A stretch of 39,491 nt of DNA from a virus, in UHGV virus genome UHGV-0344222; one strand, written 5' to 3'. Positions 6,528-38,861 of the stretch are shown here, piece after piece (positions within the stretch are counted from its first letter, which is position 1; the number at the start of each line of letters is the position of its first letter). The position numbers and the translations under genes were made by a program. The notes below the pieces were generated by a model. The model did not search any database. It was not told where the DNA came from and saw nothing but the letters and a program-made list of their open reading frames with translations.

Positions 6528-7225
6528 AAAACATCGCCGCACAGATGGTTAACTTTGACCGTGAGCAGATGCGTCGGATCGCCAACAACATGCCGGAACA
6601 GTACGATGAAAAGCCGCAGGTACAGCAGGTAGCGCAGATCATCAACGGTGTGTTCAGCCAGTTACTGGCAACTTTCCCGGCGAGCCTGGCTAACCGTGAC
6701 CAGAACGAAGTGAACGAAATCCGTCGCCAGTGGGTTCTGGCTTTTCGGGAAAACGGGATCACCACGATGGAACAGGTTAACGCAGGAATGCGCGTAGCCC
6801 GTCGGCAGAATCGACCATTTCTGCCATCACCCGGGCAGTTTGTTGCATGGTGCCGGGAAGAAGCATCCGTTATCGCCGGACTGCCAAACGTCAGCGAGCT
6901 GGTTGATATGGTTTACGAGTATTGCCGGAAGCGAGGCCTGTATCCGGATGCGGAGTCTTATCCGTGGAAATCAAACGCGCACTACTGGCTGATTACCAAC
7001 CTGTATCAGAACATGCGGGCCAATGCGCTTACTGATGCGGAATTACGCCGTAAGGCCGCAGATGAGCTTGTCCATATGACTGCGAGAATTAACCGTGGTG
7101 AGGCGATCCCTGAACCAGTAAAACAACTTCCTGTCATGGGCGGTAGACCTCTAAATCGTGCACAGGCTCTGGCGAAGATCGCAGAAATCAAAGCTAAGTT
7201 CGGACTGAAAGGAGCAAGTGTATGA
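6524..7225 (+). CDS. P: Replication protein P (helicase loader)
   Basis: 233 aa, lambda P-like; start overlaps the O stop. Confidence 0.97.
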   Translation: MKNIAAQMVNFDREQMRRIANNMPEQYDEKPQVQQVAQIINGVFSQLLATFPASLANRDQNEVNEIRRQWVLAFRENGITTMEQVNAGMRVARRQNRPFLPSPGQFVAWCREEASVIAGLPNVSELVDMVYEYCRKRGLYPDAESYPWKSNAHYWLITNLYQNMRANALTDAELRRKAADELVHMTARINRGEAIPEPVKQLPVMGGRPLNRAQALAKIAEIKAKFGLKGASV

Positions 7226-7512
7226 CGGGCAAAGAGGCAATTATTCATTACCTGGGGACGCATAATAGCTTCTGTGCGCCGGACGTTGCCGCGCTAACAG
7301 GCGCAACAGTAACCAGCATAAATCAGGCCGCGGCTAAAATGGCACGGGCAGGTCTTCTGGTTATCGAAGGTAAGGTCTGGCGAACGGTGTATTACCGGTT
7401 TGCTACTAGGGAAGAACGGGAAGGAAAGATGAGCACGAACCTGATTTTTAAGGAGTGTCGCCAGAGTGCCGCGATGAAACGGGTATTGGCGGTATATGGA
7501 GTTAAAAGATGA
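7222..7512 (+). CDS. ren: Ren exclusion protein
   Basis: 96 aa MTGKEAIIHYLGTHNSFCAPDVAALTG... Confidence 0.92.
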   Translation: MTGKEAIIHYLGTHNSFCAPDVAALTGATVTSINQAAAKMARAGLLVIEGKVWRTVYYRFATREEREGKMSTNLIFKECRQSAAMKRVLAVYGVKR

Positions 7513-7585
7513 CCATCTACATTACTGAGCTAATAACAGGCCTGCTGGTAATCGCAGGCCTTTTTATTTGGGGGAGAGGGAAGTC

Positions 7586-8026
7586 ATGAAAAAACTAACC
7601 TTTGAAATTCGATCTCCAGCACATCAGCAAAACGCTATTCACGCAGTACAGCAAATCCTTCCAGACCCAACCAAACCAATCGTAGTAACCATTCAGGAAC
7701 GCAACCGCAGCTTAGACCAAAACAGGAAGCTATGGGCCTGCTTAGGTGACGTCTCCCGTCAGGTTGAATGGCATGGTCGCTGGCTGGATGCAGAAAGCTG
7801 GAAGTGTGTGTTTACCGCAGCATTAAAGCAGCAGGATGTTGTTCCTAACCTTGCCGGGAATGGCTTTGTGGTAATAGGCCAGTCAACCAGCAGGATGCGT
7901 GTAGGCGAATTTGCGGAGCTATTAGAGCTTATACAGGCATTCGGTACAGAGCGTGGCGTTAAGTGGTCAGACGAAGCGAGACTGGCTCTGGAGTGGAAAG
8001 CGAGATGGGGAGATCGGGCTGCATGA
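7586..8026 (+). CDS. ninB: NinB (Orf-family recombination mediator)
   Basis: MKKLTFEIRSPAHQQNAIHAVQQILPDPTKP... from the ATG at 7586. Confidence 0.9.
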   Translation: MKKLTFEIRSPAHQQNAIHAVQQILPDPTKPIVVTIQERNRSLDQNRKLWACLGDVSRQVEWHGRWLDAESWKCVFTAALKQQDVVPNLAGNGFVVIGQSTSRMRVGEFAELLELIQAFGTERGVKWSDEARLALEWKARWGDRAA

Positions 8027-8550
8027 CTATCAAATCAAATACGCCAGCACACGACAAGGACTGCTGGCAAACGCCGCTTTGGCTTTTTGATGCACTGGAT
8101 ATTGAGTTTGGATTCTGGCTGGATTCGGCAGCGAGCGACAAAAATGCTCTGTGTGCTCACTGGCTAACTGAGGCCGACGACGCGCTCAATTCTGAGTGGG
8201 TAAGCCACGGTGCAATCTGGAATAACCCACCGTACAGCAATATCAGGCCGTGGGTGGAAAAAGCCGCTGAGCAGTGCAGACAACAGCGACAGACGGTAGT
8301 TATGCTTGTGCCAGAGGATATGTCAGTCGGATGGTTCAGCAAGGCTCTGGAGAGTGTCGACGAAGTTCGCATTATCACTGATGGACGGATTAATTTTATC
8401 GAACCATCGACAGGGCTGGAGAAGAAGGGAAACAGCAAAGGCTCCATGCTGCTGATTTGGCGACCGTTCATCAGTCCTCGACGGATGTTTACTACCGTAT
8501 CCAAAGCGGCATTGATGGCGATCGGGCAGGGCGTCAGGAGGGCGGCATGA
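8023..8550 (+). CDS. Phage-type DNA N6-adenine methyltransferase (orphan, no cognate nuclease seen)
   Basis: NPPY catalytic motif ([13 protein letters not shown]); ATGA overlap with the ninB stop; occupies the ninC/ninD position. Confidence 0.8.
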
Positions 8551-8723
8551 GGCGACAGCGACGAAGTTTCACCGACATCATCTGCGAAAACTGCAAATAC
8601 CTTCCAACGAAACGCTCCAGAAATAAACGCAAGCCAATCCCAAAAGAATCTGACGTAAAAACCTTCAATTACACAGCTCACCTGTGGGATATCCGGTGGC
8701 TAAGATATCGTGCGAGGAAATGA
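8547..8723 (+). CDS. ninE: NinE
   Basis: [58 protein letters not shown]; ATGA overlap with the methyltransferase stop. Confidence 0.85.
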
Positions 8724-8725
8724 CA

Positions 8726-9067
8726 ATGGATTATTCACAGTTAAGTGATTTTGAAATTAACAGAATGGTAGGAGACATAATTTTTAAAGGCCTTTGGGCA
8801 AGTAAACCGGAAACATCAGGGAATAACACCAACAAATGGTATTACGGAAATGCTGATACAACTTTTGAGCCATTAAATCATTTGCCTGACTACTGCAATG
8901 ATCCGAGCGCTTCATGGCCGATTATTGAGAAATACAGGATTTCTATCTTAGACCAGTTAACTGAATGGTGTGTGGATGCAAAAGGCGTAAGCCCAATATT
9001 TGATACCAGACCTCTCCGCGCCGCCATGATTGTCTTTCTCCTGATGCAGGAGGCCAATAATGCTTAG
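8726..9067 (+). CDS. Hypothetical nin-region protein (113 aa; alternative ATG at 8720)
   Basis: ORF with GAGG 7 nt upstream of the ATG at 8726; not a lambda nin gene that I recognise. Confidence 0.5.
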
Positions 9068-9276
9068 CCCATCTCAATCCCTTCAATACCTGAAAGGAAG
9101 CATAGAGCGGGCTTCAATGTGCACAGAGTGGATTCTATCTAGGTTTAGCGCATACAGAAGATTGCCGGTAAAGGGCATGCCAAGCAAGTCGATGCTGCAT
9201 ATGCAAAAGAATGCGCGCTGGAAGGTATGGCGAGAACACAGGTTATCTGGCTGAAAGAGGGGGTTATTAAGGCGTG
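9060..9276 (+). pseudogene. ninF N-terminus fused out of frame to a ybcO-like C-terminus (mosaic junction remnant)
   Basis: First about 19 codons match NinF as I recall it ([10 protein letters not shown]...ERA); a different frame (9149-9277) encodes ...[25 protein letters not shown], the YbcO C-terminus; GTGA overlap with rusA. Confidence 0.5.
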
Positions 9277-9636
9277 AATACCTACAGCATCGCATTACCC
9301 TGGCCTCCGAGCAATAACCGCTACTACCGGCATAATCGCGGGCGCACGCACATCAGCGCAGAAGGGCAGGCATACCGCGATAACGTCGCTCGAATCATTA
9401 AAAACGCAATGCTGGATATCGGCCTGGCTATGCCTGTGAAAATCCGCATTGAGTGCCACATGCCGGATCGCCGTCGCCGTGACCTGGATAATCTGCAAAA
9501 AGCCGCTTTTGACGCACTCACTAAAGCAGGTTTCTGGCTGGATGATGCTCAGGTCGTTGATTACCGCGTTGTGAAGATGCCTGTTACCAAAGGTGGGAGG
9601 CTGGAACTGACCATCACCGAAATGGGGAATGAATGA
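9274..9636 (+). CDS. rusA: RusA Holliday-junction resolvase
   Basis: 120 aa, GTG start; matches DLP12 RusA as I recall it. Confidence 0.93.
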
Positions 9637-9773
9637 TGTTTGAGTTTAATATGGCAGAACTTCTTCGCCACCGCTGGGGGCGTCTGCGCTTATATCGTTT
9701 CCCCGGTTCTGTTTTGACCGATTACCGAATACTGAAGAATTACGCCAAAACACTGACAGGAGCAGGAGTATGA
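9633..9773 (+). CDS. ylcG: YlcG-like small protein (46 aa)
   Basis: Manual translation [46 protein letters not shown]; ATGA overlap with the rusA stop. Confidence 0.6.
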
Positions 9774-9858
9774 AGTCAGAGATAACAATCAACTAATACT
9801 GTTTTGTTGATTTTTGCTTGTAATTGGCGTTCTGGTCTGAGTTTTGTGGAGTAAGTTG

Positions 9859-10242
9859 ATGCGTGATATTCAGATGGTTCTTGAGCGTTGGGGAGCGTGG
9901 GCGGCTAATAATCATGAAGATGTGACCTGGTCGTCCATTGCCGCCGGTTTTAAGGGATTAATTACTTCAAAAGTAAAATCTCGCCCGCAATGTTGTGACG
10001 ATGACGCGATGATCATTTGCGGGTGCATGGCCCGTCTGAAAAAGAACAACAGCGATTTGCACGATTTATTAGTAGATTATTATGTAGTCGGTATGACATT
10101 CATGTCACTGGCAGGTAAGCATTGCTGCTCTGATGGTTATATCGGGAAAAGGTTACAGAAGGCTGAGGGCATAATTGAAGGGATGTTAATGGCATTAGAT
10201 ATCCGGTTAGAGATGGATATCGTTGTTAATAACTCTAATTAA
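9859..10242 (+). CDS. quuD: Late-gene antiterminator Q (QuuD / phage-82 type)
   Basis: [34 protein letters not shown]... 127 aa. Confidence 0.88.
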
Positions 10243-10269
10243 TACGCCAATTATTTACTAAAAGTTATT

Positions 10270-10415
10270 AAAAATGGGGCGTTGAAACGCCCCCAAAAAT
10301 AAAGGGTAATATATAACAGAAGGTTTGTATAGTTAGAAGCAAGGTTGTGCTTCTAAAGGAAGTGGCTTGAGGGAGCCACTTATATGTTGGGGAGGCAAAG
10401 CCTCCCACAACATAT
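10270..10415. other. Cluster of four stem-loops between Q and the porin gene (candidate pR'/tR' region and nmpC terminator)
   Basis: Hairpins at about 10275-10293 (GGGGCGTT/AACGCCCC), 10333-10354, 10363-10382 and 10385-10412. Confidence 0.5.
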
Positions 10416-10430
10416 CTTTTAGTAATCAAA

Positions 10431-11513
10431 TTAGAACTGGTAAACCATACCTACAGCAACGATATCATCGGTAGCAACGCCAGATGCTTTCGTGAAATCG
10501 CTCTTATCAATCAGGTTGATTTTGTAGTCAACAAAAGTGGACATATTTTTGTTGAAGTAATAGGTTGCACCTACATCAACATATTCAACCAGGTCCTGAT
10601 CACCCCAAACACCCAAGTCTTTTCCTTTAGAATGCAGGTAAGCAACGGATGGACGCAGGCCGAAGTCGAACTGATATTGTGCAACAGCTTCGAAGTTTTG
10701 TGCTTTGTTGGCAATATGGTTATTACCAAAAACAGTCATGTTCTGGGTTTCAGAATAGGTGGTGGCCAGATAGATGTTGTTCGCATCATATTTCAGACCA
10801 GCTGCCCATACTTCAGCATTTTGACCAGAAGCATTCAGACCGTTGTTACCGTAGATAACCTGATTATTAGTGCGATCAGATTTAGCATAGGTTGCACCCA
10901 CGCCGAATCCTTCATACTCATAAGTAGTTGAGAAACCGAAACCATCGCCATTAGCTTCAGTTACTTCATTTCGGTCATTTTTGCCCTGATACTGAGCTGC
11001 AAAGTTCAGGCCATCAACCAGACCAAAGAAGTCGTTGTTACGATAAGTTGCAACACCTGTGGTGCGACCAGTCATGAATACATCTGTTTGGGTCCAGGTA
11101 TCGCCACCGAATTCTGGCAGAACGTCAGTCCACGCACCGATGTCGTATGCTACACCGTAGTTACGGCCGTAATCGATTGAGCCGTAGTCACCGAATTTCA
11201 GGCCTGCAAATGCAAGACGGGTTTTGTCTTTGGAGGAACCTTGAGATTCAGCGCGGTTGCCTTTGAATTCATATTCCCACTGACCGAAACCAGTCAGTTG
11301 ATCGTTGATTTGGGTTTCACCTTTGAAGCCAAGACGGGCATAAGTAGTATCACCATCATCTGCATCATTAGAGGAGAAGTAGTGCTTAGCATTAACTTTC
11401 CCGTACAGATCCAGCTTGTTACTGTCTTTATTATAAATTTCAGCTGCCTGAGCAGACATCGCCATCAGTACTGATGCAGCTACAGCAGAAATTGCCACTG
11501 TTAATTTTTTCAT
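10431..11513 (-). CDS. nmpC: Outer-membrane porin (OmpC/NmpC family), apparently intact
   Basis: 360 aa with signal peptide [23 protein letters not shown] and C-terminal ...MVYQF. Confidence 0.92.
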
Positions 11514-30725: not shown

Positions 30726-33700
30726 ATGGGTAAAGGCAGCAGTAAAGGGCATACCCCGCGCGAAGCGAAGGACAACCTGAAGTCCACGCAGCTGCTGAGT
30801 GTGATCGATGCCATCAGCGAAGGGCCGGTTGAAGGTCCGGTGGATGGATTAAAAAGCGTGCTGCTGAACAGTACGCCGGTGCTGGACAGTGAGGGGAATA
30901 CCAATATATCCGGCGTCACGGTGGTGTTCCGGGCCGGTGAGCAGGAGCAGACACCGCCGGAGGGATTTGAATCCTCCGGCTCCGAGACGGTGCTCGGTAC
31001 AGAAGTGAAATATGACACGCCGATCACCCGGACCATCACGTCGGCAAACATTGACCGTCTGCGTTTTACTTTCGGCGTGCAGGCACTGGTGGAAACCACC
31101 TCAAAGGGGGACAGGAATCCATCGGAAGTCCGCCTGCTGGTTCAGATACAACGTAACGGTGGCTGGGTGACGGAAAAAGACATCACCATTAAGGGCAAAA
31201 CCACCTCGCAGTATCTGGCCTCGGTGGTGGTGGGTAACCTGCCGCCGCGCCCGTTCAATATCCGGATGCGCAGGATGACGCCGGACAGCACCACAGACCA
31301 GCTGCAGAACAAAACGCTCTGGTCGTCATACACCGAAATCATCGATGTGAAACAGTGCTACCCGAACACGGCACTGGTCGGCGTGCAGGTGGATTCGGAG
31401 CAGTTCGGCAGCCAGCAGGTGAGCCGTAATTATCATCTGCGCGGGCGCATTCTGCAGGTGCCGTCGAACTATAACCCGCAGACGCGGCAATACAGCGGTA
31501 TCTGGGACGGAACGTTTAAGCCAGCATACAGCAACAACATGGCCTGGTGTCTGTGGGATATGCTGACCCATCCGCGCTACGGCATGGGGAAACGTCTTGG
31601 TGCGGCGGATGTGGACAAATGGGCGCTGTATGTCATCGGCCAGCATTGCGATCAGTCGGTGCCGGACGGTTTTGGCGGCACGGAGCCGCGCATCACCTGT
31701 AATGCGTACCTGACCACACAGCGCAAGGCGTGGGATGTGCTCAGTGATTTCTGCTCTGCGATGCGCTGTATGCCGGTATGGAACGGGCAGACGCTGACGT
31801 TCGTGCAGGACCGACCGTCGGATAAGGTGTGGACCTATAACCGCAGTAATGTGGTGATGCCGGATGATGGTGCGCCGTTCCGCTACAGCTTCAGCGCCCT
31901 GAAGGACCGCCATAATGCCGTTGAGGTGAACTGGATTGACCCGAATAACGGCTGGGAGACGGCGACAGAGCTTGTGGAGGACACGCAGGCCATTGCCCGT
32001 TACGGTCGTAACGTCACGAAGATGGATGCTTTTGGCTGTACCAGCCGGGGGCAGGCACACCGCGCCGGGCTGTGGCTGATTAAAACAGAACTGCTGGAAA
32101 CGCAGACCGTGGACTTCAGCGTGGGTGCCGAAGGGCTTCGCCATGTACCGGGCGATGTCATTGAAATCTGCGATGATGACTATGCCGGTATCCGCACCGG
32201 CGGGCGCGTGCTGGCGGTAAACAGCCAGACCCGGACGCTGACGCTCGACCGTGAAATCACGCTGCCATCTTCCGGCACCACGCTGATAAGCCTGGTTGAC
32301 GGGCAGGGGAGTCCGGTCAGCGTGGAGGTTCAGTCCGTCACCGACGGCGTGAAGGTGAAAGTGAGCCGTGTTCCTGACGGCGTTGCTGAATACAGCGTAT
32401 GGGGGCTGAAGCTGCCGACGTTGCGCCAGCGCCTGTTCCGCTGCGTGAGTATCCGTGAGAACGACGACGGCACGTATGCCATCACCGCCGTGCAGCATGT
32501 ACCGGAAAAAGAGGCCATCGTGGATAACGGGGCGCACTTTGACGGCGACCAGAGCGGCACGGTAAATGGTGTCACGCCGCCAGCGGTGCAGCACCTGACC
32601 GCAGAAGTCACCGCAGACAGCGGGGAATACCAGGTGCTGGCCCGCTGGGACACGCCGAAGGTGGTGAAGGGCGTGAGCTTCCTGCTTCGCCTGACCGTGG
32701 CAGCGGATGACGGCCGTGAGCGGCTGGTCAGCACGGCCCGGACGACGGAAACCACTTACCGCTTCACACAACTGGCTCTGGGGAACTACAGGCTGACAGT
32801 CCGGGCAGTAAATGCGTGGGGGCAGCAGGGCGATCCGGCGTCGGTATCGTTCCGGATTGCCGCACCGGCAGCGCCGTCGCGGATTGAGCTGACGCCGGGC
32901 TATTTTCAGATAACCGCCACGCCGCATCTTGCGGTTTATGACCCGACGGTACAGTTTGAGTTCTGGTTCTCGGAAAAACGGATTGCGGATATCAGGCAGG
33001 TTGAAACCAGCGCGCGTTATCTTGGTACGGCACTGTACTGGATAGCCGCCAGTATCAATATCAAACCGGGCCATGATTATTATTTTTACGTTCGCAGTGT
33101 GAACACCGTTGGCAAATCGGCATTCGTGGAGGCTGTCGGTCAGCCGAGTGATGATGCATCAGGCTATCTGGATTTTTTCAAAGGCGAGATAGGGAAAACC
33201 CATCTGGCTCAGGAGCTGTGGACGCAGATTGATAACGGTCAGCTTGCGCCTGACCTGGCTGAAATCAGGACGTCCATTACGGATGTCAGCAATGAAATCA
33301 CACAGACCGTCAATAAGAAACTGGAAGACCAGAGTGCAGCGATCCAGCAGATACAGAAGGTTCAGGTTGATACAAATAATAATCTGAACAGCATGTGGGC
33401 TGTGAAGCTGCAACAGATGAAGGACGGACGCCTTTATATTGCGGGTATCGGTGCCGGTATTGAGAATACGCCAGCAGGAATGCAGAGTCAGGTGCTGCTG
33501 GCGGCAGACAGGATTGCGATGATTAATCCTGCGAATGGCAACACAAAACCGATGTTTGTTGGTCAGGGTGATCAGATATTCATGAATGAAGTGTTCCTGA
33601 AGCGCCTGACGGCCCCCACCATTACCAGCGGCGGCAATCCTCCGGCCTTTTCCCTGACACCGGACGGAAAGCTGACCGCTAAAAATGCGGATATCAGTGG

Positions 33701-37900: not shown

Positions 37901-38286
37901 AAACCACATCGTCGTTTGATTACGGCACTAAATCCACGAATAACACTGGTGCGCATACCCATAGTGTTAGCGGTACGGCTGCTTCAGCCGGTGCACATAC
38001 CCATTCGATGACATTTGTTTCAGGTGGTTCCAGTGGTGCTCCGGGAAGTGGAGCATCTGATTATTCTAAATACAGTGTTAACACTTCTTCTGCAGGCGCT
38101 CATACGCACTCTGTATCGGGTACTGCTGCAAGCGCAGGTGCACACGCGCATACTGTCGGTATTGGTGCTCATACGCACTCCGTTGCGATTGGCTCACATG
38201 GACACACCATCACCGTTAACGCTGCTGGTAACGCGGAAAACACCGTCAAAAATATCGCATTTAACTATATTGTGAGGCTTGCATAA
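34933..38286 (+). CDS. stf: Side tail fiber protein Stf (1117 aa) with long Ala/Ser-rich repeat region and His-rich C-terminal repeats
   Basis: N-terminus [26 protein letters not shown]... lambda Stf-like; repeats SAxxAxxSASSA... and [17 protein letters not shown] (twice). Confidence 0.92.
35300..36300 (+). repeat. Intragenic low-complexity tandem repeats (Ala/Ser/Thr-rich) within stf
   Basis: Reiterated GCx-AGC/TCx codon blocks; explains the long spurious ORFs on other frames and the antisense strand. Confidence 0.7.
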
Positions 38287-38861
38287 TGGCATTCAGAATG
38301 AGTGAACAAGCACGGACCATAAAAATTTATAATCTGCTGGCCGGAACTAATGAATTTATTGGTAAAGGTGACGCATATATTCCGCCTCATACAGGTCTGC
38401 CAGCAAACAGTACCGATATTGCACCGCCAGATATTCCGGCTGGCTTTGTGGCTGTTTTCAACAGTGATGAGGCATCGTGGCATCTCGTTGAAGATCATCG
38501 GGGAAAAACCGTCTATGACGTGGCTTCCGGCGACGCGTTATTTATTTCTGAACTTGGCTCGTTACCGGAAAATGTCACCTGGTTATCGCCGGAAGGGGAA
38601 TATCAGAAGTGGAACGGCACAGCCTGGGTGAAGGATACGGAAGCAGAAAAACTGTTCCGGATCCGGGAGGCGGAAGAAACAAAAAACAGCCTGATGCAGG
38701 TAGCCAGTGAGCATATAGCGCCACTTCAGGATGCTGTAGATCTGGAAATTGCAACGGAGGAAGAAATCTCGTTGCTGGAAGCATGGAAAAAGTATCGGGT
38801 ATTGCTGAACCGTGTTGATACGTCAACTTCACAGGATATTGAATGGCCAGCACTGCCGTAG
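38286..38861 (+). CDS. tfa: Tail fiber assembly protein Tfa
   Basis: 191 aa [48 protein letters not shown]... Confidence 0.93.

Follow-up and report, generated by a model that had tools for sequence, protein, structure and literature searches.

A ninX gene of the P22 type in the nin region of a lambda-like prophage

A stretch of viral DNA of 39,491 nucleotides (UHGV virus genome UHGV-0344222; hereafter the window) contains, between ninE and a remnant of ninF, an open reading frame (ORF) that is, with a probability of about 0.9 as judged by sequence comparison, a genuine copy of ninX, a P22-type nin-region gene, carried here by a lambda-like prophage. The coding sequence runs on the + strand from an ATG at 8726 to a TAG at 9065-9067 (CDS 8726-9067) and specifies a NinX/DUF2591 family protein of 113 amino acids ending in ...LLMQEANNA. 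ninX is an already known gene that was first described in phage P22, has long been named, and is very common. A preliminary description of the same DNA had left the protein unassigned, which is wrong. The protein is a member of Pfam family PF10765 (Phage_P22_NinX, formerly DUF2591), scoring 62.1 bits against a gathering score of 22.6 (E = 7.4e-17), with its residues 2-108 aligned to positions 1-114 of the 114-position profile, and this was its sole Pfam match. It also matches phrog_444 at full length (E = 7.6e-44), while no NCBIfam model matched it. In BLASTP, it is 61% identical over the whole length to the type protein, NinX of P22 (NP_059615; E = 1e-43), which belongs to the same family, is nearly the same size (112 versus 113 amino acids), and is encoded in the same slot between ninE and ninF. 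Moreover, many lambdoid phages (127 phage records) carry a gene 100% identical to it in nucleotide sequence that is annotated as 'Phage NinX', 'NinX protein' or 'DUF2591 family protein'.

All of the signature blocks of the family, including the invariant C57 and A100, are present in the window protein: Y-S-x-[LM]-S-D-x-E-I-N, D-Y-C-N-x-P-x-D-A-W-P-I-I, W-x-A, and a C-terminal motif. Among 5426 complete E. coli genomes, 1172 contain a ninX match, for which the RefSeq name is 'phage protein NinX family protein'. Of the 1175 E. coli records with a match, just 607 span 80% or more of ninX, and such partial coverage is consistent with cassette mosaicism. The ORF is a real gene and not a chance frame, as is evident from purifying selection (pN/pS of 0.11-0.35 in the ninX frame, against alleles differing from that of the window by 11-14 nucleotides), from full-length family matches, and from a confident structural model.

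The nin region of the window resembles that of lambda (ninB-ninI, NC_001416) in its position in the operon, in the presence of O, P, ren, ninB and ninE, and in its tightly packed, small, non-essential genes. Unlike the window, lambda has no ninX, and its ninE abuts ninF directly, so that the preliminary description was right in saying that the protein matches none of the nin proteins of lambda; homology to lambda's own nin gene products (NinA-NinI) was not found with Pfam or in the lambda reference. It is because lambda itself lacks ninX that the gene was missed at first reading. That description had named homology to a characterised housekeeping lambdoid nin protein as the result that would speak against it, and had proposed profile and structure-based homology searches. 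The homologue found is a canonical, named nin protein of the P22 type, but not a characterised one; the profile searches gave a named family (PF10765, phrog_444), whereas the structure searches gave no significant fold match in the PDB. The view of the nin region as an accessory, dispensable region is borne out by earlier work, in which the nin genes of lambda were non-essential once polarity on Q had been removed (PMC10695390), and P22 remained viable after deletion of ninB through ninH, ninX included (PMC11016777). Dispensability of ninX for laboratory plaque formation has thereby been shown.

Start site and neighbouring genes

Reading of the sequence confirmed a well-formed ORF with a plausible ribosome-binding site at the position first proposed, lying between NinE and a NinF-like neighbour. 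A Shine-Dalgarno-like GAGGAA occupies 8714-8719 (+), with the end of its GAGG core 8 nucleotides before the ATG at 8726. Two other in-frame starts were considered. An ATG at 8720-8722 (+), which overlaps the stop of ninE as ATGA, would lengthen the protein by an N-terminal Met-Thr (MTMDYS...), and it is from the equivalent of this ATG that P22 ninX is annotated. A GTG at 8684, taken from a mechanical ORF listing, would overlap ninE by 40 nucleotides. Since most NinX homologues begin with M-[DN]-Y-S and the spacing to the Shine-Dalgarno sequence fits, 8726 appears to be the best start, in preference to both ATG 8720 and GTG 8684.

The gene upstream is ninE (8547-8723, +), which codes for 58 amino acids, matches PF05322 (NinE) over positions 1-58 of 58 (E = 3.4e-42), and shares about 97% of its nucleotides with ninE of P22. 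Its TGA stop (8721-8723) lies 2 nucleotides before the ninX ATG. Downstream, a 64-codon ORF with a NinF-like N-terminus (9060-9254, +; here ninF') has an ATG that overlaps the ninX stop by 8 nucleotides (ATGCTTAG), and P22 has the same kind of overlapping stop/start arrangement between ninX and ninF. This ORF is chimeric. Its first 22 amino acids are identical to those of P22 NinF at 16 positions (73%), while the remainder diverges and is unrelated to P22 NinF, which makes the earlier term 'ninF remnant' a fair one. phrog_672 gave a weak match to the N-terminus only; Pfam gave none to the ORF, and the remaining 42 amino acids were matched in none of Pfam, PHROGs and NCBIfam. In the annotation of Escherichia phage PhiR11_1, the ORF is listed as a 'hypothetical protein'. 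The rusA-type right half of the nin region joins at a mosaic junction inside ninF', at about nucleotide 9122.

Around ninX, the order of the genes is cI, cro, cII, O, P, ren, tR2, ninB, a dam-type methyltransferase gene, ninE, ninX, ninF', rusA, ylcG and Q, and that annotated in PhiR11_1 is the same (O, P, ren, NinB, methyltransferase, NinE, NinX, hypothetical, RusA, YlcG, Q, porin). ninX is part of the rightward early operon, where it follows a tR2-like terminator. The latter is a strong intrinsic-terminator-like hairpin at 7538-7561 (+), between ren and ninB, with an 8-bp stem containing 6 GC pairs followed by a T-run; it occupies the position of lambda tR2. A scan of 7000-10500 for promoters and terminators revealed none within ninX, and a scan of the whole window against Rfam revealed nothing in or near the ninX ORF. 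The sole Rfam match above the gathering score in the window is IS009 (RF02111; 221 bits, full length) at 38629-38827 (+), which sits within a 191-codon ORF (38286-38861) at the tail-fibre end of the prophage.

The methyltransferase gene (7963-8550, +; probable start about 8023) codes for a Dam-family DNA N6-adenine methyltransferase (PF05869, E = 2e-65) and stands where lambda has ninC and ninD. The gene that follows the ninF stub is rusA (9274-9636, PF05866) in the window and ninG in P22; rusA likewise replaces lambda ninG. The right half of the nin region in the window is of the DLP12/82 type. Further along, between Q and the lysis genes, a gene for a 360-amino acid OmpC/OmpD-like porin with a signal peptide is found on the opposite strand (10431-11513, -); it is annotated 'OmpD' in PhiR11_1 and is probably a lysogenic-conversion gene. 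Two long ORFs on the - strand, one of 174 codons (8157-8681) antisense to the methyltransferase gene and ninE, and the other of 582 codons (31326-33074) antisense to a J-like tail-tip gene of 1160 codons, are most likely spurious.

Conserved blocks and variable segments

A model of the window protein was made with AlphaFold2 from an alignment of 47 sequences from which that of P22 had been left out (mean pLDDT 84.9, pTM 0.77, core above 90). The protein is confidently predicted to be a single small, acidic alpha/beta domain, arranged as helix 1 (residues 8-19), a variable insert, helix 2 (60-69), a three-stranded sheet (predicted strands at 73-77, 80-85 and 88-93), and helix 3 (96-112). The insert (residues 20-58) is poorly defined in the model, with pLDDT values of 56-64. 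Neither a signal peptide nor a transmembrane segment could be recognized in the window protein as judged from its sequence, and its one hydrophobic run, AAMIVFLLM, has just nine residues and forms the core helix in the model. The protein has a pI of 4.5 and a net charge of -6, and the family as a whole is similarly acidic, with a median pI of 4.7, a median net charge of -7, and 88% of 120 members below pI 5.5.

An alignment of 120 diverse NinX sequences, which have a mean identity to the window protein of about 35%, was used to measure conservation. Two residues, C57 and A100, are invariant in all 120 members; R98, D8 and N12 are conserved in at least 96%; and the positions conserved in at least 90% further include Y3, S7, E10, I11, V15, N58, D62, A63, P65, I67, I72, W81, P96, L97, M101 and L105. 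Three blocks are conserved. The N-terminal block (8726-8764, +; amino acids 1-13) takes in part of helix 1 with Y3, S7, D8, E10, I11 and N12, and is 100% identical to P22 in nucleotide sequence. The central block (8888-8947, +; amino acids 55-74; D-Y-C-N-x-P-x-x-x-W-P-I-I...I-S) takes in helix 2 and the beginning of strand 1, along with the invariant Cys57. The C-terminal block (9008-9064, +; amino acids 95-113) is helix 3, with a motif ending in -x-M-Q and a nucleotide identity to P22 of about 95%. Between these blocks lie variable segment V1 (8765-8887, +; amino acids 14-54; pLDDT 56-64), where the patch that diverges from P22 begins, and variable segment V2 (8948-9007, +; amino acids 75-94), which makes up most of the three-stranded sheet. 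Within V2, just W81 and position 83 are conserved, the latter being Ala in 81% of the family and Val in the window.

The window allele departs from the family consensus at several places. Positions 62 and 63, which are D and A in 93-97% of the family, are A62 and S63 here; V83 stands in place of the usual Ala of W-x-A, and R95 and Y70 are found for N.

A comparison with P22 at the DNA level revealed how the alleles have been assembled. Identity is complete through codon 13 of ninX; about 150 nucleotides that are unrelated follow, to roughly nucleotide 8912; identity of about 95% then resumes through the C-terminal half to the end of ninX and across the first 21 codons of ninF, after which the sequences diverge again. 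The central 45-50 residues of P22 NinX (amino acids 14-62) thus represent a different cassette, and this accounts for the overall identity of 61%. Salmonella phage L, on the other hand, carries the ninX allele of the window (96.5% amino acid identity). Among 92 relatives with recognizable anchor motifs, 18 types of V1 and 37 types of V2 occur in 55 combinations, numbers that are illustrative only, as the relatives were drawn by similarity to the query. The V1 type of the window occurs in company with 22 different V2 types, and 15 different V1 types accompany its V2 type, although choosing relatives by their similarity to the query makes reassortment look more extensive for the cassettes of the window itself. 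Taken at the sequence level, NinX is a near-invariant scaffold bearing two independently exchangeable cassettes (amino acids 14-54 and 75-94).

Spread of the family and possible roles

The NinX family comprises 930 clusters at 90% identity and, in a library of 1.84 billion proteins, 1874 clusters at 50% identity. Nearly all of its members are single-domain proteins of about 100-140 amino acids. tblastn located the family in 599 phage records, among them those of virulent or unrelated phages that infect Vibrio, Klebsiella, Salmonella (Jerseyvirus, Sashavirus) and Aeromonas, and of large E. coli myoviruses. At lambdoid loci in IMG/VR where the flanking ORF could be called, NinE lies upstream of ninX in 61 of 76 cases and a NinF-like start lies downstream in 59 of 75. 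In unrelated phages, genes of DNA metabolism recur beside ninX. In phage Sergei, they specify DNA polymerase, nucleoside 2-deoxyribosyltransferase and DNA methylase; in a Klebsiella Jedunavirus, ninX lies between the genes for helicase and primase; in an E. coli phage and in a Jerseyvirus, it is next to those for helicase-primase, a PD-(D/E)XK exonuclease, an annealing protein and a DNA polymerase; and in an Aeromonas phage, it is next to those for a Pif1/Dda-like helicase, a primase and a polymerase. In a Vibrio phage, Dam methylase and dUTPase genes are nearby, and in three other phages the neighbours were uninformative. None of the gene neighbours of ninX is conserved across these lineages. 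A seemingly constant upstream partner of 157-179 amino acids in virulent phages, considered as a possible Dam methylase, was rejected, as the immediate upstream proteins fall into four different, unrelated PHROGs and have no Pfam match.

The fusion proteins P0003, P0030 and P0033 were set aside as clues to function, and are read as frameshift or deletion fusions with the neighbouring genes ninE, DUF1364 and Phage_stabilise. One homologue, P0129, is extended at its C-terminus by a stretch that has CxxCxGxG and CPxC motifs and resembles a zinc finger of the DnaJ type, and on its sequence is apparently the only genuine domain fusion seen in the family.

Pfam and PHROGs record no function for NinX, the entry for phrog_444 reading 'unknown function'. 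In the searchable literature on NinX, DUF2591, 4PUP and anti-defence genes of the nin region, NinX occurs in annotation mentions only, with no experiment on it. Two profiles of the family found no usable match in a sequence search of the PDB, and the thioredoxins matched by a single NinX sequence (E = 0.04 or worse) were dismissed as chance, for NinX has no CxxC and its fold order differs. Foldseek found no PDB structure at E < 0.5, and only uncharacterised phage proteins in BFVD. The sole whole-length superposition in the PDB is with 4PUP, an uncharacterised protein of Burkholderia cenocepacia J2315 which, at 115 amino acids, is similar in size to NinX; TM scores are 0.57/0.56 over 110 columns and the Foldseek probability is 0.69, but the E-value is 0.65 and the identity 12%. 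4PUP may be a member of PF18066 (Phage ABA sandwich domain), a family to which 2 of the 120 NinX members also gave weak matches (best E = 0.099). These weak matches hint at a superfamily link for NinX, and give no clue to function. None of the defence HMMs of PADLOC-DB matched NinX at E-values up to 1.

By analogy with lambda and P22, the ninX product would be a delayed-early protein of the N-antiterminated pR transcript, and its translation would be coupled to that of the neighbouring genes. Our tentative reading, held at clearly less than even odds, is that NinX is neither an enzyme nor a DNA binder, and that it binds a protein partner tied to DNA replication, recombination or modification, or to host defence against these. 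Binding would be stoichiometric; the near-invariant scaffold would carry a putative conserved polar site (Y3, S7, D8, E10, N12, C57, N58 and R98), and the freely reassorting V1 (amino acids 14-54) and V2 (amino acids 75-94) would tune specificity. We infer this solely from composition, conservation pattern and gene neighbourhood; what was counted in its favour is the acidity of the protein, the lack of any enzyme or defence signature, the presence of cassettes on a scaffold, and neighbours that function in DNA metabolism. Adjacency to replication genes is weak evidence for a role, as small accessory genes abound in the early gene clusters of tailed phages. Also counted against partner binding are that the invariant Cys and the conserved Asp, Asn and Arg could equally fit a catalytic site, that V1 and V2 may be no more than permissive loops and hairpins, shuffled in the course of ordinary lambdoid mosaicism, and that the near-invariant D62 and A63 are missing from the window allele.

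The catalytic alternative, which we regard as unlikely, makes NinX a small Cys57-dependent enzyme with an active site drawn from Cys57, D8, E10, N12, N58 and R98; such an enzyme might, for instance, be a thiol-dependent hydrolase or transferase with a nucleotide, a DNA modification or a signalling molecule as its substrate. Preservation of C57 in 120 of 120 members, and of R98, D8 and N12 in at least 96%, is striking for a family with only about 35% overall identity, and nucleotide- or DNA-modifying neighbours occur in several phages (deoxyribosyltransferase with methylase; Dam with dUTPase). Nonetheless, PDB, Pfam and Foldseek searches linked NinX to no enzyme by sequence or by fold, its domain is very small, and the near-invariant D62 is Ala in the window allele, which is still abundant and under purifying selection. 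Somewhat less improbable, though still doubtful, is that NinX serves as an anti-defence protein, or as a decoy against the triggering of defence, with V1 and V2 shaped by an arms race with variable host immune proteins. The two segments do vary strongly, in length as well as in sequence, and reassort independently of each other among phages whose hosts are closely related, in a sample, however, that is biased through being drawn by similarity to the query. NinX is also small and acidic like many phage inhibitors, and its gene is an early one in an accessory hotspot and is dispensable in laboratory strains. Against this, the scaffold is unusually conserved and occurs in temperate and virulent phages of Vibrio, Aeromonas, Klebsiella and Salmonella, for which a conserved target fits better; a link to defence was not found in the searchable literature on NinX; and PADLOC gave no match, a result that is expected for a phage gene and carries little weight. 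The anti-defence version overlaps with the partner-binding reading, and their likelihoods are not additive.

Two further possibilities are far less probable. ninX might be a decaying mosaic leftover that no longer has a function, carried along between recombination-prone junctions at ninE and ninF. Such a fate would agree with the fact that lambda does without ninX, with flanks that are mosaic junctions and a downstream ninF that is itself chimeric, and with the loss of near-invariant D62 and A63 from the window allele; yet selection on that allele is purifying by its pN/pS values, the reading frame is intact at full length in hundreds of genomes, the fold is confidently predicted, and the family is kept in virulent phages with compact genomes. 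It is just as improbable that NinX regulates the early operon by binding DNA or RNA, for instance by modulating termination or antitermination in the nin region. The gene does lie in a region that holds transcription terminators upstream of Q (PMC11016777), but the acidity of the family (median pI 4.7) argues against nucleic-acid binding, Pfam detected no helix-turn-helix or other nucleic-acid-binding domain in the window protein or the family, and NinX also occurs in phages that lack a lambda-type Q or nin organisation.

Carried one step further, the partner-binding reading would make NinX a two-cassette specificity protein, built on a near-invariant helical scaffold that temperate and virulent phages of many gamma-proteobacteria share, whose two hypervariable segments recognize variable proteins of the host or of rival phages, and which would act as an anti-defence factor or as a modulator of nucleases or helicases in early replication, a proposal that we consider speculative and more likely wrong than right by a wide margin. 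The finding itself adds little, because ninX is already named and annotated in public records. Its interest lies in the family, which is very common (about one-fifth of complete E. coli genomes and about 600 sequenced phages, virulent ones included), conserved, and under selection. The variation of its cassettes and its recurrent placement among replication and recombination genes provide concrete hypotheses for host-interaction or counter-defence screens of phage accessory genes. If the two-cassette reading were true, NinX would be among the most widespread uncharacterised counter-defence scaffolds in enterobacterial phages.
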